The notes below the pieces were generated by a model. That model worked only from the letters and a program-made list of their open reading frames with translations. It did no database searches and was not told the DNA's origin. Of a DNA stretch of 64,000 bases, positions 13,472 to 64,000 are shown piece after piece. The position numbers were made by a program, and so were the translations under genes. The stretch is from an uncultured delta proteobacterium (GTDB taxonomy: Bacteria; Desulfobacterota; Binatia; Bin18), in assembly GCA_963733195.1 (NCBI GenBank), contig CAVTCR010000003.1:1-64000 (forward strand), given 5' to 3'. Positions within the stretch are counted from its first letter, which is position 1; every line of letters begins with the position of its first letter.

Positions 13472-14581
13472 TCAATTCAACTTGTAGAGCTGTATCGCAC
13501 TTTCGGCCAACACTTGCCGCCGATACTTCTTCGGCAATTTATCGGCAATCATCTTCGGCGCGCCAGGAAAGAACCCATCAGGATGCGGATAGTCGGTCGC
13601 CCAGAGAATCCGATCTGGACCAAGGTAGTCGGCAAGCACCGACAAGCTGCCTTCCACCGGCTCGAAAGCAATCCAGCACTGCCGCTTGAAATACTCGCTC
13701 GGCAGCATCTTCAGCGTCGTGTCATTGAAGACCCCATTGTCATCGAAGTGACGATCCATGCGATCGAGCCATGGTGCAATCCAGCCGCCACCTGATTCGA
13801 GGAACGCGAAGCGTACTTTTGGGAACCGTTCACAGACGCCACCCCAGATCACACTCAAACTGGCGAGCATCATCTCGACTGTGTGAGAAACAATGTGTTT
13901 GGCGCCCGGGCTCTCGAAACGCTCGACACCCGCCGCTGGCATGCCACCAGTGCCTTCATGGATGCCAATAGCAAAATCAAGCTCCTGCGCTTCGGCCCAG
14001 AACGGATCATACGACGGGTCACTCAGCATGCGATTGTTGTAGGGATTAGGACGAAGGAAACCGCTACGCATGCCTAACTGCTTGCGCGCGTACTTCATCT
14101 CTTCGATCGCCAGTTCGACTGATTGCATCGGCAGCATCGCCACGCCAAAGAGGCGATCAGGATACGGCTTGCAGTAATCTGCCAGCCAACGGTTGTAGGC
14201 GCGGCAAACAGCGGCAGCCAGCAGCGGATCTTGAATCGCACCAGACAGTAGACCAAGCGTGGGATAGAGAAACACGGCGTCAATGCCATCGAGGTCGAGA
14301 TCAGGAATACGCGCATGCGGATCGAACCCACCTTTTCTGCCTTCGACATAGCGGATGTCCTGCCTAGCGGCACCTTGGCGCGCACCAATAGCTCCGGCAA
14401 AGCCAAGTCCTTTTGCACCACCAATCATACGGCCTTCGATCAGCAGGCGCTCTTTGCCATCAGCATCGACTTTGAGTTGTGGTGCACGGTCGCGGAACTG
14501 CGGGTCCAGGTACTCTACCCAAAAGTTAGGCGGCTCCAATACATGTCCATCGGAATCAATAACGTTGTACGTTCGGCCCAT
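13472..14581 (-). CDS. Amidohydrolase family protein (Amidohydro_2)
   Basis: VIDSDGHVLEP, AYNRWLADYC, FLESGGGW, ATDYPHPD. Confidence 0.9.
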   Translation of the reverse strand: MGRTYNVIDSDGHVLEPPNFWVEYLDPQFRDRAPQLKVDADGKERLLIEGRMIGGAKGLGFAGAIGARQGAARQDIRYVEGRKGGFDPHARIPDLDLDGIDAVFLYPTLGLLSGAIQDPLLAAAVCRAYNRWLADYCKPYPDRLFGVAMLPMQSVELAIEEMKYARKQLGMRSGFLRPNPYNNRMLSDPSYDPFWAEAQELDFAIGIHEGTGGMPAAGVERFESPGAKHIVSHTVEMMLASLSVIWGGVCERFPKVRFAFLESGGGWIAPWLDRMDRHFDDNGVFNDTTLKMLPSEYFKRQCWIAFEPVEGSLSVLADYLGPDRILWATDYPHPDGFFPGAPKMIADKLPKKYRRQVLAESAIQLYKLN

Positions 14582-14875
14582 GTGTGTCCCCTCCTTTTTA
14601 CTCGACGTATTTTTATGTTTAGCGTCCTACCATCTTACATTCGGCGAATCTATATTGCTGGGGTCAGAGTGTCTGCCTATTCTCGATAACATTCACACAA
14701 CCACCACGCAGGTCAGCTCTTGGAACTTTGCAACGGGTCATTTCACTGAGCAGTACTTTCTGCCCCCATATCCCCCTTTTCTCTTTCGAGAGGTGACAGG
14801 GTGTAACGACGTCTTCTTCGCAGTGTCCATACCGTAGGAAATGCCCTAGACGAGATAGCCAAAGCGCTTTAAGAG

Positions 14876-56639: not shown

Positions 56640-56900
56640 TCACGTGCCGTACTTCTTGGAAGGCTTCTCGCGCACGGCCAGCGGCGCGGTCGATGCGGTG
56701 ATGCCCTCCAATACTACCGACGGCAGCTTCCCAGCGCCTAAAACTTCCTTGGCGTCCAGAATCTCGATGCCCACGAGCTTTTCGCCCTTGCCGATATTGA
56801 GGGCAATTTCCTCGTTCAACCGCACAGTGCGGCACTCGTGCTTGCCTTCGATCAGGCGAATGTAGAGGGCGTCAATTTCGGAATCGTAGCTAATTCTCAT
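56640..56900 (-). CDS. DUF2283 family protein (antitoxin-like)
   Basis: MRISYDSEIDALYIRL..LVGIEILDA. Confidence 0.85.
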   Translation of the reverse strand: MRISYDSEIDALYIRLIEGKHECRTVRLNEEIALNIGKGEKLVGIEILDAKEVLGAGKLPSVVLEGITASTAPLAVREKPSKKYGT

Positions 56901-57150
56901 GGCTCGCCGGCAAGACAGACTCATTTTGCATAAGGGCGCGCGCGTGCGTAATCTCGCGCTTGCCTACCGCACGCACCTGCGATGCTTCCACAGTCACCAC
57001 TGCGGCGGTCTTGCCTTCGAGAGTCGTGAACTCCACTTCATAAGCGCCGCCGTCCCGATAGACATGCACCACTGTTCCCACATCGCCCGCCTCCAACCCG
57101 ACGGAAGGGACGGGTGCCTTCAATACCACTCGATCATGTTCCTTGATCAT
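56890..57150 (-). CDS. DUF4926 family protein
   Basis: IKEHDRVVL..GLEAGDVGTVVHVY..AYEVEF..EITHAR. Confidence 0.85.
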   Translation of the reverse strand: MIKEHDRVVLKAPVPSVGLEAGDVGTVVHVYRDGGAYEVEFTTLEGKTAAVVTVEASQVRAVGKREITHARALMQNESVLPASHEN

Positions 57151-57158
57151 ATTGTCTC

Positions 57159-57409
57159 TCACTCCTCATAAGGATAAGCCGTGACCAGTCGCGGCATGTC
57201 CGCCCCGCGCTCCACAATCCAAATGGTTTGCACCATCGCCACTCTACCGCTCGGCGATTCAATTTTGCCAACTATAACATATCACGCTGAAACCCGAGTC
57301 CCTCGAAAAACTGTGCTTTGCCGCCATTGTCGGGATGACCAGCGTTGAGCAGGTAGCTAACGATCTTGTCACGCTCCACCACGGTATTGTCGGCGTTGGG
57401 CAATTTCAT
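57159..57409 (-). pseudogene. DUF6883-like protein with an internal deletion/frameshift
   Basis: MKLPNADNTVVERDKIVSYLLNAGHPDNGGKAQFFEGLGF jumps frame to YVIVGKIESPSGR..TIWIVE..PRLVTAYP. The central helix appears to be missing. Confidence 0.7.
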
Positions 57410-58681
57410 CTCTGCCCGCTCTCCTCCACCAGCTTGATTTCTTCAGGCGTCAGGTCGTAGAGCTTATACACAAGCTGGTCAATCTCCCGCTCCAGGGCCG
57501 ACACGTCCGCCACTGGCGTCGCGCTTGCTTAGCCGCCAACACCCGCTCCACCAAGCCCACCAATACCGCACGTTCCACAGGCGAGGCAGGCGGAATGGGA
57601 ATCTGTTCGACATACTGCGTCCAAAAGCGCAGATAGCCGCCCCGGATTTGGGCGCTCAGGTTGACGTAGAAGTGCTGGACCGCCTTCGCATTCAAAACGG
57701 CCAACAAATACAAATCAGCGGTGGCTGCGCAGTAGGCTGTGTTGCTGAAAAACGCGCCCTTCGTATCCAGGGCGAAGCGCAAATCGTTCGCGATGTCAGG
57801 GAAGATGATTTTCGGCTGAGCGTAGGCGGTGGTGAATTTCTCCTGCGGCTGCTGGAGTTCATACCACGCTTGCTCAGTGGCGCGGCCTTCGAGTTGTTTT
57901 CTGAATGGGCGGAGGTGGTCAAGCACGGCATCCAAGCCCTTCGTTGAAACGCCGTGAGGCATGTAGAGCATCCACTGATCGGGAGCTTCGCACACCCATT
58001 TGCGGACGTGCTTGCCGCCGAGGTAGGGCTTGATGATTCCGGCAGCCTTGGGCGACTCGGTAATGAGCGCGGCTCGTTGCAGTCCGTCGATGATGAAAGC
58101 TTCATTCAAGCCGCTCTTGATGCCCATGAAGATTTTGCCGTCGATGTGTTTGCCCAAAGGTGTGCCGGTGGCTTTCATTTTCTCCAGCAAGCGCAACGTT
58201 GCGGGGGATTCTAGCCGCCAAGCGAAGCCTTTCTGCGGTAATACTGTGGTTGGCAGATGGGCGAAGCGTGGCAGTTCGGCTTCGGTTCTGACGTTGAGCG
58301 TTTGAAAGTAATGGTTCTTCTCCGGCTGGCGGTTGCGGGCGATTACGATGCATGGGTAGGCGGTGGCCTTGAAGATGGGCAAGTCGCCAAAATCTATCAC
58401 TGCGCGCAACTCGGTCTTCGCCGCCAGGAATTCTCTGAGAGGCTCGCCGTAACCAGCGCGGAAGAACTTGTTGGAAGTGATGAAAGAAAGCACTCCGCCT
58501 CCGGCCAGCAGTTGGAAAGCGCAGGCGTAGAAGTAGCAATACAAGTCGGCCCGATCGCTGTGGACGTGGGGATAGCGGGCGCGGAGTCCCGGCTTGAGGT
58601 CTTTGAAAAGTTCCATCCGCACGTATGGTGGGTTGGCGATCACGACATCGAATCCACGCTTCTTGTCAAACACCTCTGAGA

Positions 58682-60137
58682 CTCGACTTTGGCCATTGTC
58701 AGATAGCAGGAGGGGGAAGTCTTCTCTAGGATAGAGTTGCTGTTCCACGGCAAACTCGCACTCTGGAGGTACTCCATGCCCTCACTGCCCGTTGAGATGA
58801 TAGTGCTGCTGGCCCCCTTTGCGCAACTCTTTGCGGACCGGGTCTGGCTGCACGCCCAGGTGCTCGTGGTTGGGGCGATTTTAGCGCCAGGCAAACGCAC
58901 GGTCAGTAGTTGCTTGCGGGTGATGGGGTTGAGCGGGGAGGCGCACTTTACCAACTATCATCGGGTGTTGAACCGTGCGCAGTGGTCGACGTTGCAAGTG
59001 GGGAAGATCATGCTGGGCCTGCTGGTGAGGGCCTTCGTGCCGCCGGGAGCTGTGATCGTGCTGGGGGCGGACGATACGGTGGAGCGGCGCAGCGGGCGCA
59101 AGATCAAGGCGAAGGGCTGTTATCGCGATGCCGTGCGGTCGTCCAAGAAGCACGTGGTGAAGTGTTTTGGGCTGAAGTGGGTGACAATGATGGTGTTAGT
59201 CCCAGTCCCCTGGGCGCAACGCGTGTGGGCGTTGCCCTTTTTGACCGTCCTGTGCTGGCCGCCCAAGTCGCGCCACAAGCGTCGGCACAAGAGTAGTGTG
59301 GACGGAGTCAGGCAGATGATGCAGCAAGTGCGGCGCTGGCTGCCGCAGCGGCTGCTCGTCTTGGTGGTCGATGGTGGGTTTGCCGCGGTGGCTTTAGCTT
59401 TGGCCTGCACCGCTAGTGAGGTGGTGATGGTGAGTCGCTTGCGGCTGGATGCGGCGCTCTACCACCCGCCCGAGCCCCGCCCGGCAAATGCGCCGGGGCG
59501 CAAGCCGACCAAGGGCCCGCGCCAACGGAGTCTGAAGGTCTGGGCGGCACGGACGGATACCCCCTGGGAGTCCGCGGTCGTCGACTGGTATCACGGGGAG
59601 CAGAAAACGCTACAGGTCTTCTCCCGTACGGCGCTGTGGTACACCTCGGGCTGGGCCCCGGTGGCGATTCGCTTTGTGTTGGTGCGCGATCCTGAAGGAC
59701 GGCTGGCGGATGCGGCCTTCTTCTGTACTGACCTCCAGGCTACCCCGATCCAGATCATCGAGTGGGTGGTAATGCGCTGGTCAGTTGAGGTGACATTTGA
59801 AGAGGCCCGCGCTCATCTGGGGCTGGAAACCCAACGTCAGTGGTCCGAGAAAGCGATTGCCCGAACCGCCCCCGTCCTGCTCGGCCTCTTTTCCCTGGTC
59901 ACGCTCCTGGCGCTGCGGTTCTGCCCCACCGGCCACATCCCAGTAGAGACCTCGGCGTGGTATCAAAAATCGACCGCCACCTTCACTGACTGTCTGACTT
60001 TGGTACGGCGCCATCTCTGGCGTGCTCGGTATTTGAACAACTCTGCTCTCCAAACCGACCTCGTGCAATTGTCGCGGGAAGCCTTCGAGTGCTTGCTGGC
60101 GGACCTCCCTCTAGCGGCCTAAATGGTCAAAGTTGAG
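58682..60137 (+). mobile_element. 1456-bp IS element (IS701-like) with 16-bp TIRs and a 5-bp TSD
   Basis: TIRs ctcgactttggccatt / aatggtcaaagttgag (14 of 16 match). TGAGA is duplicated at 58677-58681 and 60138-60142. Confidence 0.93.
58776..60122 (+). CDS. DDE transposase (IS701-like, DDE_5)
   Basis: GADDTVERR, VVDGGFA, RWSVEVTFEE; intact ORF with GGAGG RBS. Confidence 0.9.
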   Translation: MPSLPVEMIVLLAPFAQLFADRVWLHAQVLVVGAILAPGKRTVSSCLRVMGLSGEAHFTNYHRVLNRAQWSTLQVGKIMLGLLVRAFVPPGAVIVLGADDTVERRSGRKIKAKGCYRDAVRSSKKHVVKCFGLKWVTMMVLVPVPWAQRVWALPFLTVLCWPPKSRHKRRHKSSVDGVRQMMQQVRRWLPQRLLVLVVDGGFAAVALALACTASEVVMVSRLRLDAALYHPPEPRPANAPGRKPTKGPRQRSLKVWAARTDTPWESAVVDWYHGEQKTLQVFSRTALWYTSGWAPVAIRFVLVRDPEGRLADAAFFCTDLQATPIQIIEWVVMRWSVEVTFEEARAHLGLETQRQWSEKAIARTAPVLLGLFSLVTLLALRFCPTGHIPVETSAWYQKSTATFTDCLTLVRRHLWRARYLNNSALQTDLVQLSREAFECLLADLPLAA

Positions 60138-62166
60138 TGAGAAATAGACCTCGAAATCAAAGCTTACCTCATAGCCAAGGCTTCGCTTGGATGCAGCGAA
60201 GCACTCGATGAGTTTTTCATCAATCTGCTTCTTGAGCTTCGCTTTGGCGTCGTGGTCCGATTCGTCGAAGAACTGAAGTTTCAGTTTCTCGATCTCATAA
60301 AGCCTTTGAGATTTGAATGGGAAACCAATTAGCGAATTCCCCGCTACGATCTTGTAGTCCAGATTCGGCAGCGGCTTGATCTGCTTCACGTCTTCCTCGT
60401 CCACGACGAGCGAAAGCCAGAGGCGGAGCTTGGCGATCTCGACCGCGCCAGCGTCAATGTCCACGCCGTAGAGGCAGTTCTGGATGGCGTGGCGCTTGAA
60501 GTGGTAGGGCGTGCGTTCGTGAACGTCGTTGAAGTATGGAGTAAGCGCGGAGCGGGCGCGAACGATCTCGGTCATCATCCCCACCGGGAACGCGCCGGAC
60601 CCGACAGCGGGGTCGCAGATGGTAATCTCGGCCAGTTTTTCATCAATCAGCCGGGCGTGTTTCTCGATGCTCTTGGGCATCTTGATGCGATACTTCGTCT
60701 CGACCGCTTCGTAATGGGAGATTTGCTCGCCGAGATGGACGAACGTTTCGATGTCGGCACGGGGAACAACTTCCTCATACACCGTCGTCTTGAGTGCAGC
60801 TTGCTCCGGCTCGGGTTCGCCAAAAAGTTTGCTTGCTTCGGTTTTCCAGGACGAGGTTCGGCGGTGTTGAGGGCGGTATCGAGGTAGTTGATGAGGCTTT
60901 CCTGACACATGTAGTGGACGATCTCGCGCGGGGTGTAGAATGAGCCGAGACCTTTGCGGCGGTTTTCCTCGATCAGATTTTCAAAGACTTTGCCGAGCAT
61001 TTCGGGGTCAATCGCCACTTCTTTTTCCAGCGGCTCGGCTTCGTTGACGGTGAAGTTGTAGCGGTCAAACACGTCGAGCATGCCGGTGCCGGTAATGCCT
61101 TCCTCGACGAACTCGGTGTTGGTGAACAGTTTGTTGGGCAGGATGATGTCGGTCTTGCGCCAGTCGTAATCGCCGAGCGGCTCAAACAGGCCGCCGTTGA
61201 GGAACGGGATGCGGCATTTGAAACGGTTGCACCACGCTTCGTGGCCGCGGTCGGTGGCAAGCGTGTCGTAAAAGAGCGGTTCGAGGATGTCGTTGAAGAA
61301 ATTGTCGTATTTCCCGTACTCGCCATTGGCCAGCCGCCGCAGGAAGTCGCGCGGGCCGCTGCCCCAGTCCTGTCCCTTGGCGACGCCGAGCCAGCCTTTC
61401 TTCTGGAGGAAGTAGAGGAACACGATCTGGCCCATGAGTTTCTTGGCGAAGTCCACGGTGTTGACGCCCTTGGCCTGTGAACTCGCTCGCCGATGGTCTT
61501 GTCCTTGACGACCAGTTTTTCCAGCGCCTTGTGGATCTCCCCGAACAGCTCTGCGTATTTTTTGAAGAATTCTTTGGTGACGGCCTCGACGCTGAACGCC
61601 TCTTCGATGTCCGCCAGCGCCGGGTCAGTCTCAGTATCTTGAAGCAAATCGAGAAATCGGGTCTGCGCGGTGTGGCAACTTTCGCCTTCGCCGACGATGT
61701 AGGAAAAACGCCGCGCCGGAGTGAGGCGCGTTTCCACACCAACTTTGCCGGAGTCTTTTTCGACGGTGGCGTATTCCATTTTGACGTAGGAGAACCGCCA
61801 CGTCGTTTCCGAAGGCGAGACGAACGCCACGAGGGCGGCATCCTTTTCGTCGCGGGTCTTGAGGTGGTCGGCCACGAAGTTGCGGATGGCGGTGCGGGCC
61901 CGTTCCAGTTTGGACTCATTGGTGAGGTGGACAATCAGAACGTCGAGCTTCTCCTTTTCGGGCGACGTGTACGTGCCGAGGCGCTCGTAGCGTTGGACGT
62001 GGTCCTTGAAGGCATCCTTCACGTACTGGCTGTTCCATGACGCTGCCTTGGACTCATCTACGTGGTTGAGAAGATTCTGGCTGAAGTGAGAGAAACGGTT
62101 CTTGTCGAACGCATGGGTGAATGTCTGACGAATGAGATTGACTGCCTGTTTCTTGTCCATGATTAT

Positions 62167-62514
62167 CTACAGATTGTTGATCCAGTTTTTGAGACTTGCC
62201 ATGACACGCGTGAGCCGAGCCGGTTCCAAAGATCCGATTGCGCCTTGCAAGAGAGAACCTTCAACCACCGCCAGACGACAGACTCGGATCACGCTGGGCA
62301 CAACCAGGCCGGTTCCTGCGAAATCCGGGTCGCTCGAGTTCACGAGTTCATCAAGTCCGGGCGTGGCTTGATGCAGGCGGGAAGAGATGGGGCAGATGAG
62401 CCAGTCGTCGAATTTCCCCGGGCACTTGCCAAGCACAAGGACCGGCCTATTCTTGCCTTGAGAAAGATCGCTGTTCGGCATCTTGACGTAGGCGATATGT
62501 CCCGCCGCAGGCAT
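62167..62514 (-). CDS. PemK/MazF family toxin
   Basis: GHIAYVKMPNSDLSQGKNRPVLVL..ICPISS..TGLVVPSVIR..IGSL. Confidence 0.88.
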   Translation of the reverse strand: MPAAGHIAYVKMPNSDLSQGKNRPVLVLGKCPGKFDDWLICPISSRLHQATPGLDELVNSSDPDFAGTGLVVPSVIRVCRLAVVEGSLLQGAIGSLEPARLTRVMASLKNWINNL

Positions 62515-64000
62515 CAGTAGGGTTCTTTCACAGGAATATTGTCATAGGCTGAAAAGTCCTCATCCTCCATTCCGCGAAATGCAGACTGCAACGCGAACTG
62601 GGACCATGCCTGATCAGTTCCATCTTCGTGGTTGCCGTTGGATACGACCAGCCACGAGGAAAGGATGACTTCACGCGGACTGAGCGTATGGGCAGTCTGT
62701 TGGGCGCGGGTCGGTTGAAATAACAGTGAGGGGATATCTCGCCGGAGAATGCCTAGCACCTTCAGCGGTTCGCTCTCCTTTTTCAACGCTTCGGCGACTG
62801 TTTTGGTAGTGGGTTTGGGGAGCGCGCCGTCAGTCAGAAGTTGAATCACCTGTTGGATGTATGCTTCGTCGTCCTCGGTGAAGCCGTGATAGCGGCGGAT
62901 TTCCTTAGCCTTGAGCCGCTTCAAGATATAGGCGTCGTTCGCGCCGCCTTTATGCCTGGGGATGGCGTCGTCGTTTTCGGGACTGGTGGCGATGGTAAAA
63001 GCGTCCTTGTTTCTGTCGAGCAGAGTATAGAAATCCTGCGGGATTGTCTGCCGCTTCTCTGATGGGTCACCGGGTTTGAGAATTTTGACGGCAGTCAGAA
63101 AATCCAGTTCGGCAGAGTCGGTTGCGCCTTGCTGGGCCAGGTAGAATTTGTCGAGTCGGCCCTGACGGAAGTAGGTCAGCAACGACGGGAACTGTTTGAC
63201 CACGGCGTCCGGCGCAGTGGGGAGCAGTCGGGTGGACCGGGCCTTCTTCGGCAGACGTTTGATGCGGGCAAAAAGCTCGGGGTCCTTGTCGCGGACTTCC
63301 CGGATCTCGGTGAGATACTCCAATTCGCTCTCTTCCTCTTCATCCTCGCCCGTGATGGTCTTCTTGGAGTTCAACTTGGCGAACAAATCGTGTGATTTGA
63401 CTTCTTCGCCCTCGGTCAACAGCCGCGCGTCCGCGCCGAGCATTTCGATGAAGGCATGGATCTTCGCCTCGGCTGCCTCCCTGAGTTTGATGAGGTCGTT
63501 GCTCTCCTCGGTGGGGAAGAAGTTGTAGGTATGGATCGTGTCGAACTTGGTGTCCACGCGGTTCACGCGCCCGACGCGCTGGATGAGACGGGTTGGATTC
63601 CACGGGATGTCGTAATTGATGACGATGTTCGAGCGATGCAGGTTGACGCCTTCGGAGAGGACTTCAGTGCTCACGAGAATGCGGAAATCATCACGCGGGC
63701 GAAAGGCGTTAGCGTCGAAATTCGCAATCACGTCTTTATGGGCCTCTTCGCTGGATTGCCCCGTGAAGAGGATGACCTTGGGCTCGACCTCTTTAGCAAT
63801 CCGGTCGGCAAGATAGGAAGCCGTCTCTTGCGACTCGGTGAAGATAATCAGCTTCCCTTTTTTCAACTTGGGTTGCGAGTTGAGGACTTCACGAAAGGCC
63901 TCCCATTTCGGATCGCGCCCGATCTTCGCCCAGAGTTCCTGAACCTTGCGAAGAATGTTGAAATCGCTCTTGAGGTCGCGAAGGAAATCGGCCGAGAAAT
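62514..64000 (-). CDS. SF2/SNF2-type helicase C-terminal half (RM-associated), 5'-truncated by the window, with an antitoxin-like tail
   Basis: KLIIFTESQETA, STEVLSEGVNL, NYDIPWNPTRLIQRVGRVNR; tail WSQFALQSAFRGMEDED. Confidence 0.9.
   Translation of the reverse strand, partial: FSADFLRDLKSDFNILRKVQELWAKIGRDPKWEAFREVLNSQPKLKKGKLIIFTESQETASYLADRIAKEVEPKVILFTGQSSEEAHKDVIANFDANAFRPRDDFRILVSTEVLSEGVNLHRSNIVINYDIPWNPTRLIQRVGRVNRVDTKFDTIHTYNFFPTEESNDLIKLREAAEAKIHAFIEMLGADARLLTEGEEVKSHDLFAKLNSKKTITGEDEEEESELEYLTEIREVRDKDPELFARIKRLPKKARSTRLLPTAPDAVVKQFPSLLTYFRQGRLDKFYLAQQGATDSAELDFLTAVKILKPGDPSEKRQTIPQDFYTLLDRNKDAFTIATSPENDDAIPRHKGGANDAYILKRLKAKEIRRYHGFTEDDEAYIQQVIQLLTDGALPKPTTKTVAEALKKESEPLKVLGILRRDIPSLLFQPTRAQQTAHTLSPREVILSSWLVVSNGNHEDGTDQAWSQFALQSAFRGMEDEDFSAYDNIPVKEPY

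Follow-up and report, generated by a model that had tools for sequence, protein, structure and literature searches.

Toxin-antitoxin pairs are known from restriction and BREX-like loci, and in several described systems a toxin is kept silent by a defence protein. The anticodon nuclease PrrC, whose gene lies within a type IC restriction locus, is silenced by the restriction enzyme, presumably through association with restriction proteins, and PMC12707154 documents PrrC as a guard of EcoprrI. CreTA, a pair of CRISPR-regulated toxin-antitoxin RNAs, leaves cells addicted to Cascade: as PMC9458426 describes, the presence of the defence effector is what keeps the toxin silent, and the gene for it therefore has to be retained. 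PMC13069673 describes ietHAS, DarHTG, and type II Gabija (the MazF-like GajC with the GajB helicase), in which the function of a helicase is linked to that of a toxin; the SNF2 helicase of ietHAS has an antitoxin-like effect, and its mutation makes the system toxic. Finally, "Type-2 BREX-related" systems place an N-terminal HKD nuclease–Swi2/Snf2 helicase next to an adenine methyltransferase, with DUF499 and DUF3780 as defining partners. Such loci also contain embedded HEPN, PIN, and Schlafen RNases, while PemK and MazF occur 0 times in the main text of the source (PMC12839542).

The locus described here lies in a 64,000-nucleotide stretch of DNA from an uncultured delta proteobacterium (hereafter, the window). 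It comprises genes for an HKD-SNF2 helicase, a PemK/MazF-family toxin, and an adenine methyltransferase, all on the minus strand. On the strength of homology and a modelled complex, the helicase probably keeps the adjoining, putatively RNA-cutting toxin in check. As in EcoprrI, a candidate RNase gene sits inside a restriction-modification operon, here and in 13 other loci. PrrC, however, is an ABC-ATPase/HEPN-type nuclease unrelated to PemK; the window toxin has no homology to PrrC or RloC (ABC-type ATPase plus anticodon nuclease) and matches PemK_toxin only. Any resemblance would be functional, not familial. Furthermore, PrrC is silenced non-covalently, without an antitoxin-derived peptide, and its trigger is T4 Stp, whereas the predicted silencer here is a grafted antitoxin peptide. 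CreTA differs in relying on RNA-guided transcriptional repression by Cascade, where we propose protein-protein neutralisation through a fused peptide. The helicases of ietHAS, DarHTG, and type II Gabija are separate proteins without a recognisable antitoxin segment, and the role of toxin falls to a protease, an ADP-ribosyltransferase, or a split MazF-like nuclease. The window locus and its relatives share with Type-2 BREX-related systems both the helicase and methyltransferase pairing and the kinds of RNase inserted in the locus. In contrast, DUF499 (PF04465) has no match in the window genome (93% complete), and the genes flanking the locus are unrelated.

Canonical PemK/MazF modules with DUF2281-type antitoxins, here the sister clade (L016, L029, L030, L032, L035-L039, and a pair on contig C29 of the window's own genome), share the toxin family (43-56% identity), the C-terminal antitoxin motif, and an antitoxin coding sequence directly 5' of the toxin start, which it overlaps or abuts. 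There, the antitoxin is a free protein of 64-77 amino acids with an N-terminal DUF2281 domain; here, the motif ends an 1111-residue helicase. Our search of article texts found no published description of a large defence enzyme bearing an antitoxin of which only the toxin-binding peptide remains, and no paper combining PemK, Snf2, and an antitoxin.

Anatomy of the locus

Table 1. Features of the helicase-toxin-methyltransferase locus, in window coordinates.
Feature	Position	Strand	Basis or remark
HKD(PLD)-SNF2 helicase gene, 3' part	62514..64000	-	gene runs beyond window end
Helicase C-terminal tail, 47 codons: linker and antitoxin-like motif	62517..62657	-	helicase homologue alignment, antitoxin HMM, pN/pS
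Core motif W-S-x-F-[AS]-L-x-x-A-[FLM]-R-G-M-E-D-E-D-F-S-A-Y	62544..62606	-	alignments with free DUF2281-type antitoxins; predicted toxin-contacting helix
TGATG, helicase stop overlapping toxin start	62512..62516	-	identical in 14/14 fused loci
PemK/MazF-family toxin, 115 aa, intact	62167..62514	-	PF02452, E 1e-10
Type-IIG-like N6-adenine methyltransferase pseudogene	57409..62160	-	Eco57I, N6_Mtase, TaqI_C domains
Insertion sequence, 1461 bp, inside methyltransferase gene	58677..60137	+	DDE_5 transposase, Pfam E 1e-29

The full helicase gene on the contig spans 62514..65849 (-), with its start at 65849, and no stop interrupts its frame between the window end and the TGA at 62514-62516. An N-terminal PLD/HKD nuclease domain and an SNF2 core lie in one polypeptide (Pfam PLDc_2, E 3.7e-9; SNF2-rel_dom, 1.1e-7; Helicase_C, 5.9e-21), which also matches the PADLOC profile "HKD+Snf2" C3a139 (E 8.6e-49). 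The protein has the HxK, GSSN, and GLGKT motifs, and its motif II is DESQ in place of the DESH of 103 of 106 homologues. We found no clear sign that the helicase is degenerating: DESQ recurs in 2 other homologues, and a single singleton change falls at otherwise invariant columns, where other homologues have 0-4.

The toxin scores 42.2 bits against PemK_toxin (cut-off 23.1; profile positions 3-108 of 109), its sole family match; NCBIfam and PADLOC returned nothing. Its homologues form 30 clusters at 66-84% identity with 40 invariant columns, R23, S44, S45, and R46 among them; across 30-45 homologues, conservation of R23, S44, and S45 is complete or at least 90%. These three may correspond to the catalytic Arg and Thr/Ser of MazF RNases such as those of E. 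coli and B. subtilis. No relative was found when viral contigs were scanned with the toxin alignment.

The toxin gene overlaps the helicase by 1 nt and is separated by 6 nt from the methyltransferase, whose ATG is at 62160. The TGATG overlap points to translational coupling of helicase and toxin. A purine-rich, Shine-Dalgarno-like stretch lies just 5' of it, in the V-K-E codons of the tail, and most of the 14 fused loci have a GAAGGAG-type stretch ahead of the toxin start. The list of open reading frames at the locus contains no free antitoxin beside the toxin. This arrangement had been described correctly in the original prediction, made from the letters of the window alone: a helicase stop overlapping the toxin start, a methyltransferase beginning just past the toxin, and no free-standing antitoxin gene on either side. 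That prediction missed the state of the methyltransferase gene, which is broken by three frame changes and the 1461-bp insertion sequence.

The frame changes, near 61490, 60820, and 57520, leave four frame-shifted pieces, and the window thus has no intact N6-adenine methyltransferase with a target-recognition domain next to the helicase. The gene is intact in four fused loci (L015, L024, L026, and L027), where it encodes 1028-1082 amino acids with Eco57I, N6_Mtase, and TaqI_C domains. Contigs of relatives differ from the window by 1-nt indels at 61475/61486-7 and 57519/57522. Assembly error may account for the frameshifts, as a further gene of the contig is split as well. The transposase (DDE_5) of the insertion sequence is encoded at 58737..60122 (+). 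The element is absent from contigs of two other metagenomes, which join 58676 straight to 60138, and a third metagenome has it in different flanks. Helicase, tail, and toxin are intact beside the broken gene. None of the public sequencing runs contained more than 28% of the sampled words; a single RNA run (X20) covered the insertion sequence only (58674-59883), with no cover of helicase or toxin.

The helicase tail and free antitoxins

We find that the helicase extends well beyond the usual end of its family. Among its 120 best homologues, 95 end 5-9 residues past the conserved REVILS and 19 end after 10-26; the remaining 6, the window helicase included, carry a 47-residue tail. In the window this tail reads SWLVVSNGNHEDGTDQAWSQFALQSAFRGMEDEDFSAYDNIPVKEPY, with the core motif at residues 1082-1102. 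The frame had been predicted to run past REVILSSWL by ~40 residues with no ATG before the motif; both points hold, with the tail slightly longer, and the last 75 helicase codons contain no in-frame ATG, GTG, or TTG ahead of W-S-x-F.

Searches of Pfam and NCBIfam with the last 58 residues gave no match at E up to 0.1, as would be anticipated from the curated DUF2281 model, which spans the N-terminal domain only. An HMM built solely from 9 free antitoxins of other loci tells more. Among 142,495 six-frame open reading frames of the window's own genome, it ranks the helicase second (E 3.5e-6), behind the genome's own free paralogue. The likeness thus exceeds chance. Only HMM positions 31-68 align to the tail, and the N-terminal DUF2281 domain (PF10047), found in 5 of 7 free antitoxins scanned (E 6e-6 to 8e-4; one above the Pfam cut-off), is missing. 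The helicase is therefore not a member of the DUF2281 family; rather, it seems to carry only the toxin-binding end of that family's antitoxins, as had been supposed from the resemblance of the tail to an antitoxin C-terminus lacking its DNA-binding N-terminus. The motif lies directly 5' of its presumed cognate toxin, as in an antitoxin, but not on a small free-standing protein. In the alignment, MAFFT sets the native helicase end, REVILSSWL, against the DUF2281 helix of the free antitoxins, possibly reflecting microhomology at the fusion point.

The motif recurs in about 477 clusters of small free antitoxins. The carriers seen are proteins containing DUF2281, DUF433, HTH_23, or Unstab_antitox, together with the helicase. 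An exhaustive search of representatives returned only 38-159-residue proteins among its best 150 matches; it is uninformative about other large carriers, because representatives at 50% identity hide the tailed helicases themselves.

Selection has acted on this peptide. Across 11 loci, the tail has a pN/pS of 0.20 and the core motif one of 0.13, at a pS of about 0.70, showing that the tail is under purifying selection. A 48-residue open reading frame that overlaps the tail in another frame (62528..62674) can be discounted as the selected coding frame, since synonymous sites of the tail frame are near saturation and replacement sites are not.

Structure prediction also favors an interaction. Two toxin copies modelled with a 60-residue tail gave an ipSAE of 0.86 (best of 3 controls, 0.01), a mark met by 58 of 80 solved complexes and 2 of 110 mismatched pairs, and one that memory of solved MazE-MazF complexes can help a model to reach. 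The toxin is only weakly like solved chains, with MazF6 as its sole PDB sequence match (E 0.006). Three runs had at least 65% of contacts in common, with partner pLDDT of at least 66. The predicted tail contacts are toxin residues 19-24 (R23) and 44-46, and those of lowest error join residues 31-40 of the tail chain to residues 40-42 and 77-84 of both toxin copies. The model lays the motif across the groove of the toxin dimer, where it covers the conserved Arg23 and Ser44-45.

Recurrence and cassette-like distribution

The same helicase-tail/toxin junction occurs in 13 other loci from several phyla. The original prediction had named a one-off deletion, or a stop or indel splitting tail from helicase, as what would undo it. 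Instead, the fusion is recurrent and conserved, and contigs of two other studies show the window junction without indels. A tailed helicase precedes the toxin in 13 of 13 toxins at least 66% identical that have visible upstream DNA, while a small free open reading frame precedes it in 13 of 13 that are at most 56% identical. In addition, five tailed helicase clusters each have a longest contig equal in size to that of a toxin cluster. Co-occurrence of tail and toxin is thus strict within the sample, with one possible exception, toxin cluster P0139 and the tail-less helicase P0007, whose longest contigs are both 5195. The toxin is full length in 12 of the 14 fused loci. In one lineage (L033 and L034), the tail is kept and the toxin truncated, showing that the pair can decay.

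Toxins of the fused loci form a single clade (support 99/99). In contrast, the 9 tailed helicases are scattered over a 110-row helicase tree, requiring at least 6-7 changes. Thus, tail and toxin move together as a cassette. A near-identical contig from another metagenome joins 62136 to 62694 through 80 other letters, and so has neither tail nor toxin. In relatives, the helicase|methyltransferase junction holds other inserts: VapB-PIN (L044), MNT-HepT (L053), MNT (L051), and Schlafen AlbA_2 (L049 and L059). This junction of a widespread operon therefore looks like a hotspot for RNase modules. Neighbouring genes differ between loci.

Possible roles of the helicase-toxin pair

That the helicase carries an antitoxin is well supported in silico, because tail homology, strict co-occurrence, recurrence, conservation, and the modelled complex all point to it. 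Our preferred explanation, to which we give a probability of roughly 0.7, is that the tail is a DUF2281-type antitoxin peptide that neutralises the coupled PemK/MazF RNase, and that the two form a cassette with addiction as its consequence. The last ~45 helicase residues would be the toxin-binding C-terminal peptide of a type II antitoxin that no longer has an N-terminal domain or start codon of its own and is made solely as the helicase end. The toxin would be translated off the helicase mRNA, coupled via TGATG, and its dimer would be inactive while clamped on the tail. Tail and toxin would constitute a single-origin cassette that lies where helicase and methyltransferase meet in a two-gene, type-IIG-like restriction/defence operon, and recombination in the conserved flanks would have carried it from one such operon to another. 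Addiction would then follow automatically, the health of the cell depending on continued production of full-length, in-frame helicase: deletion, silencing, or truncation of the helicase 5' of the tail would remove the antitoxin and leave the toxin.

If the peptide does neutralise the toxin, it offers a simple natural means of making the open reading frame of a defence gene impossible to lose. This would bear on the persistence and spread of costly defence systems and would strengthen the idea that the C-termini of antitoxins can be exchanged as modules. Toxin, 45-residue peptide, and helicase make a small testable system. Against the preferred explanation, classical addiction requires an antitoxin more labile than its toxin, and a stable 125-kDa enzyme is therefore an odd antitoxin. 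Furthermore, the free antitoxin on contig C29, whose partner toxin is 46% identical to the window toxin, could cross-neutralise it in this strain.

A guarding role would extend the same core mechanism without excluding addiction, and we regard it as possible, though doubtful. The toxin would be parked on the helicase and freed once a phage has blocked, sequestered, or degraded the complex of helicase and methyltransferase, or once host proteases clip the tail during infection, with translation shutdown as for PrrC of EcoprrI. The helicase would then be a covalent guard bearing a portable toxin-binding peptide of ~30 residues on which a MazF dimer rides. Removal, truncation, degradation, or infection-time disabling of the helicase would unleash the RNase, so that the cell would be addicted to an intact defence gene and would undergo abortive infection upon phage attack on the restriction complex. 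The motif might, just as tentatively, be a transferable "addiction tag" that could render any fused protein indispensable and could serve gene-stabilisation or containment designs in laboratory strains. Consistent with guarding, a candidate RNase lies within a defence operon and is predicted to bind one of its proteins, other RNase modules occupy the same junction in relatives, and the "backup effector" layer of BREX-related loci (PMC12839542) would be matched, as would the PrrC precedent (PMC12707154). However, the cassette is kept where the methyltransferase is broken (the window, L013, L014, and L025), which fits addiction better than the guarding of a working system, and its scatter on the helicase tree resembles that of a selfish module. 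The original prediction, that the helicase itself neutralises the RNase within a guarded restriction system, is thus upheld for the antitoxin (homology, co-occurrence, and model), while its restriction-modification partner is a pseudogene here, making a working guarded system unlikely in this genome. Addiction, which it offered as an alternative, fits the data at least as well as guarding.

Other readings depart from neutralisation by the fused tail. It is improbable that the tail docks an uninhibited MazF dimer on a translocating helicase to cut RNA, such as phage transcripts or R-loops. A conserved covalent tether and coupled translation would give a fixed stoichiometry, and according to PMC13069673 a MazF-like protein takes the place of the nuclease GajA beside the GajB helicase of type II Gabija. 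Nevertheless, the small free antitoxins that share the motif have inhibition as their job, and the model covers the conserved Arg and Ser of the toxin groove.

Slightly less probable still is a separate small antitoxin, made from an internal translation start or freed by proteolysis, for which the fusion would be a shared frame only. Antitoxin tails are typically protease-sensitive, and a free 87-residue protein (P0173) with an HTH_23 N-terminus has a C-terminus 97% identical to the helicase tail, indicating that other proteins can carry a working copy of the peptide. In four of the 14 loci (the window, L013, L020, and L024), however, the 45 codons ahead of the motif are free of in-frame ATG, GTG, and TTG, and the in-frame start codons of the others are not at a conserved position, so that an internal in-frame start is rejected. 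Least probable is a neutral relic, an antitoxin remnant fused to the helicase by a deletion to hitch-hike with a weak or dead toxin on a mobile operon: the window locus is decaying and one lineage has a truncated toxin, but the junction persists in 14 loci, with synonymous divergence near saturation and a pN/pS of 0.13-0.20, and the toxins, mostly full length, keep their invariant columns.

The helicase operon and its antitoxin-like tail

All genes of the helicase-toxin-methyltransferase operon are on the minus strand (see table). The helicase carries an N-terminal PLD/HKD nuclease, an SNF2 helicase core, and a Helicase_C domain; PADLOC classes it as 'HKD+Snf2' (E = 8.6e-49), with partial DrmD-like matches as well. 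Its stop codon overlaps the toxin ATG (TGATG). The ORFs and domain matches thus bear out the original prediction of a helicase tail, a TGATG overlap, a PemK toxin, and then a methyltransferase. Beyond the window, residue 355 of the helicase (motif II) gives DESQ, where 103 of 106 homologues have DESH and two others share the Q; we find no excess of odd substitutions in this helicase.

Features of the operon and its surroundings
Feature	Position	Strand	Description
Helicase	contig start 65849; stop TGA 62514-62516	-	1111 aa; open frame from window end; good ribosome-binding site
Helicase tail	62517-62657	-	47-aa C-terminal extension
Motif in tail	62544-62606	-	antitoxin-like
Region of the native helicase end	62640-62680	-	includes REVILSSWL
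Toxin	62167-62514	-	115 aa; PF02452 (PemK/MazF family), E = 1e-10, 42.2 bits (cut-off 23.1)
Methyltransferase	57409-62160	-	large; begins 6 bases past toxin stop; Eco57I/N6_Mtase/TaqI_C; PADLOC REase_MTase_IIG
Methyltransferase frame changes	near 61490, 60820, 57520		relative to intact references
Insertion sequence (IS)	58677-60137		1461 bp; inside methyltransferase
DUF4926 and DUF2283 genes	56640-57162	-	small, overlapping; E = 1e-20 and 5e-12
Split histidine kinase	69297-70833 of the contig	+	PAS/HisKA ORF (L001:13298-14284) and HATPase_c ORF (14307-14834)

The tail is an addition to a helicase family that is strongly conserved across phyla (2736 homologues at E ≤ 0.001 among 7999 scored candidates). 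Among the best 120 homologues, 95 reach their stop 5 to 9 residues after the conserved REVILS, while 19 have 10 to 26 other residues past this point, including P0091, a protein cluster whose apparent tail is cut by the contig end. The 47-residue extension is present in six, the window's among them (SWLVVSNGNHEDGTDQAWSQFALQSAFRGMEDEDFSAYDNIPVKEPY). The 10- to 26-residue extensions mostly follow 'SSW', as in tailed forms, rather than 'SSY', and some start like the linker of the tail; they may be remnants left where the cassette was lost. Another HKD-SNF2 helicase, more divergent (P0228, 1132 aa), also ends in an antitoxin-like motif, which would mean either that the fusion extends past the tight group or that it had two origins.

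PemK matches number 11 in this genome. The paralogue nearest to the toxin (46% identical, E = 1e-37) is on another contig, C29, downstream of a free 72-aa ORF that resembles the helicase tail in its C-terminal third. As a non-circular test of homology, nine free antitoxins from other organisms were made into an HMM, with which every six-frame ORF of 30 aa or more in this genome (142,495) was scanned. The C29 antitoxin was the top hit (E = 1.3e-16), followed by the helicase ORF (E = 3.5e-6). The tail aligns to HMM positions 31-68 of 71 and the DUF2281 part aligns to nothing, in keeping with the earlier claim of an antitoxin-like tail that lacks the N-terminal domain. Pfam and NCBIfam give no match in the tail, as would be expected of a DUF2281 model that spans the N-terminal domain only. 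Pfam places DUF2281 at the N-terminus of five of the seven free antitoxins scanned (E = 6e-6 to 8e-4), with only that of locus L029 exceeding the gathering score and no match in those of L017 and L018. DUF2281 proteins have been documented as antitoxins to PIN toxins, with experimental validation for one pair (PMC4963859; PMC12654330).

MAFFT aligned the native helicase end to the DUF2281 helix of free antitoxins (E-V-L-x-F-V-x-Y-L type), possibly reflecting microhomology at the fusion site, or coincidence. At another locus, the ORF upstream of the toxin (L031:4714-4992) ends in the antitoxin motif but has a 60-aa N-terminus without a Pfam family and unlike DUF2281; this could reflect a further change of carrier or a wrongly called start.

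Conservation of the fusion and the modelled complex

Scanning with the toxin yielded 7 loci from a set of one genome per species and 21 from metagenome contigs. Where upstream DNA was on the contig, all 13 toxins at least 66% identical to the window's follow a tailed helicase (L013-L015, L020-L024, L026-L028, L033, L034), and all 13 that are at most 56% identical follow a small free ORF (L016-L019, L029-L032, L035-L039). L025 and L040, whose contigs begin inside the toxin, were left out of both counts. The motif W-S-x-F-S-L-x-x-A-M-R-G-M-E is plain in ten of the free ORFs and loose in that of L017; those of L018 and L019 are more distant. Two of the fused loci have identical tails and a complete helicase, with the toxin truncated at about residue 63, beyond which the sequence is unrelated (L033:3388-3600, L034:4642-4854). 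A toxin cluster of the fused clade (P0139) and a tail-less helicase cluster (P0007) both have a longest contig of 5195; if on one contig, they could represent an ancestral unfused state or a departure from strict co-occurrence.

The TGATG junction is identical in all 14 fused loci, most of which have a GAAGGAG-type ribosome-binding stretch within the V-K-E codons of the tail. Contigs from two other studies (data sets X1, record 6, and X3, records 22 and 23) span the junction at 62514 with 0 to 3 differences and without an indel. Thus, the fusion is no assembly artefact. A tail made separately, as a mini-antitoxin, is improbable: over the final 75 codons, no in-frame ATG, GTG, or TTG precedes the motif in the window, L013, L020, or L024, four of the 14 loci, and the start codons present in the others have no conserved position.

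Across 11 non-redundant loci, synonymous sites are close to saturated (pS about 0.70). The tail (42 codons) has a pN/pS of 0.20, the motif 0.13, and the linker 0.34, compared with 0.25 for the preceding helicase segment. The synonymous/replacement pattern in the tail frame rules out a 48-aa ORF overlapping it in another frame. The toxin is constrained as tightly as the tail, having 40 invariant columns in 30 clusters, R23, S44, S45, and R46 included. That the tail is a neutral relic seems very improbable.

We modelled two toxin copies (alignment of 45) with the last 60 helicase residues (alignment of 21). The complex scored an ipSAE of 0.86 (runs 0.84, 0.86, 0.88), against 0.01 for the best of three controls. 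Of 80 solved complexes, 58 attain this mark, as do 2 of 110 mismatched pairs; the calibration is only rough here because we supplied our own alignments and folded a 2+1 chain set. The runs share at least 65% of contacts, with a partner pLDDT of at least 66. The lowest-error contacts join W-S-Q-F-A-L-Q-S-A-F of the tail to toxin residues 40-42 and 77-84 of both copies. Toxin residues 19-24 (R23 among them) and 44-46 also belong to the modelled interface. The model supports binding of the tail to the toxin dimer. Memory of the fold is possible, since MazE-MazF complexes have already been solved; by sequence, however, the toxin is only weakly like any solved chain (best MazF6, E = 0.006). Such binding might also dock the RNase on the helicase as an active subunit, a reading we consider unlikely, if slightly less so than a mini-antitoxin.

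Movement of the tail and toxin

Careful tree building groups the 12 toxins of fused loci in a single clade (99/99 support), apart from the 11 toxins with free antitoxins. The tailed helicases are scattered. On a FastTree phylogeny of 110 helicases, built from the 700 aa preceding the tail, nine tailed rows require seven changes, at least six forced by starred branches, and they cluster no better than shuffled labels (mean 7.6 changes). The nearest relative of the window helicase is tail-less (P0004, 89%). Furthermore, in one metagenome contig, whose flanks are both more than 93% identical, 62136 is connected with 62694 via 80 other letters; this contig therefore represents a close relative without tail and toxin. 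Thus, tail and toxin have a single origin and have been moved or repeatedly lost together. Recombination in the conserved 3' end of the helicase and 5' end of the methyltransferase would move, or repeatedly remove, this cassette. A helicase homologue occurs in 17 of 400 further genomes from the window's phylum, none of them with the tail.

The motif is shared with other carriers. A 45-column motif profile matched 86 longer proteins at E ≤ 0.01 and, in an exhaustive search of 1.84 billion representatives, 477 proteins at E ≤ 0.001; these searches describe the family without proving homology, because the profile contains helicase tails. The best 150 of the 477 are 38-159 aa long, nearly all with the motif at or near the C-terminus. 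Most carriers have DUF2281; others have DUF433 (P0181, P0201) or an Unstab_antitox segment (P0192 and others), or are HKD-SNF2 helicases, including P0228. Judged by these carriers, the motif is modular. One 87-aa carrier on a 2635-nt contig (P0173) combines an HTH_23 N-terminus (E = 4.7e-8) with a C-terminus 97% identical to the window tail, apparently the tail re-attached to a DNA-binding domain or the form from which it came.

Proposed addiction, possible guarding, and methyltransferase decay

We propose, with a probability of about 70%, that the helicase-tethered antitoxin peptide neutralises the coupled PemK RNase, with addiction to full-length helicase synthesis in consequence. Toxin translation would be coupled to the helicase, and the tail peptide, still tethered to it, would neutralise the toxin, making the cell dependent on continued full-length helicase synthesis. 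Addiction is favoured because helicase, tail, and toxin are intact beside decayed methyltransferases, and because the cassette distribution looks selfish.

A guard function, leading to abortive infection, is compatible with addiction and is a tentative second reading, ahead of the docked RNase, mini-antitoxin, and relic. It draws on the helicase-methyltransferase junction, which is an insertion hotspot of this two-gene operon family for RNase/toxin-antitoxin modules, inside a defence operon. In other genomes of the window's phylum, the methyltransferase directly follows the helicase in nine of 14 informative loci, and the other five have another module there: VapB + PIN (L044), MNT + HepT (L053), MNT alone (L051), or a Schlafen AlbA_2/HATPase_c_4 protein (L049, L059). 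These modules agree with the 'backup' RNases described inside BREX-related loci (PMC12839542).

Among known systems, the closest are the sister DUF2281-PemK pairs, PrrC-EcoprrI (PMC12707154), and CreTA addiction to Cascade (PMC9458426); ietHAS, DarHTG, and type II Gabija, in which a toxin is linked to a helicase, are also close (PMC13069673). The literature accessible to us yielded no description of a defence helicase with a fused antitoxin peptide; the supplements of PMC12839542 might list such loci.

Intact reference methyltransferases are 1028-1082 aa long (L015, L024, L026, L027). Relatives have 1-nt indels at two of the three frameshift sites of the window's gene. Its IS is missing from the contigs of two other studies and lies elsewhere in a third. 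The split histidine kinase outside the window could be a second pseudogene or a sign of assembly indel errors; thus, some of the methyltransferase frameshifts may be assembly errors. Regardless of these, the gene is disrupted by the IS. Methyltransferases of other fused loci are broken by an in-frame stop (L013, 801-4019) or a frameshift (L014, 6355-9737), or retain the TaqI_C part only (L025, 320-1144), and the toxin is intact in all three despite the interruption. Beyond the window's methyltransferase remnant, the DUF4926/DUF2283 pair looks like another small two-gene module of the island.
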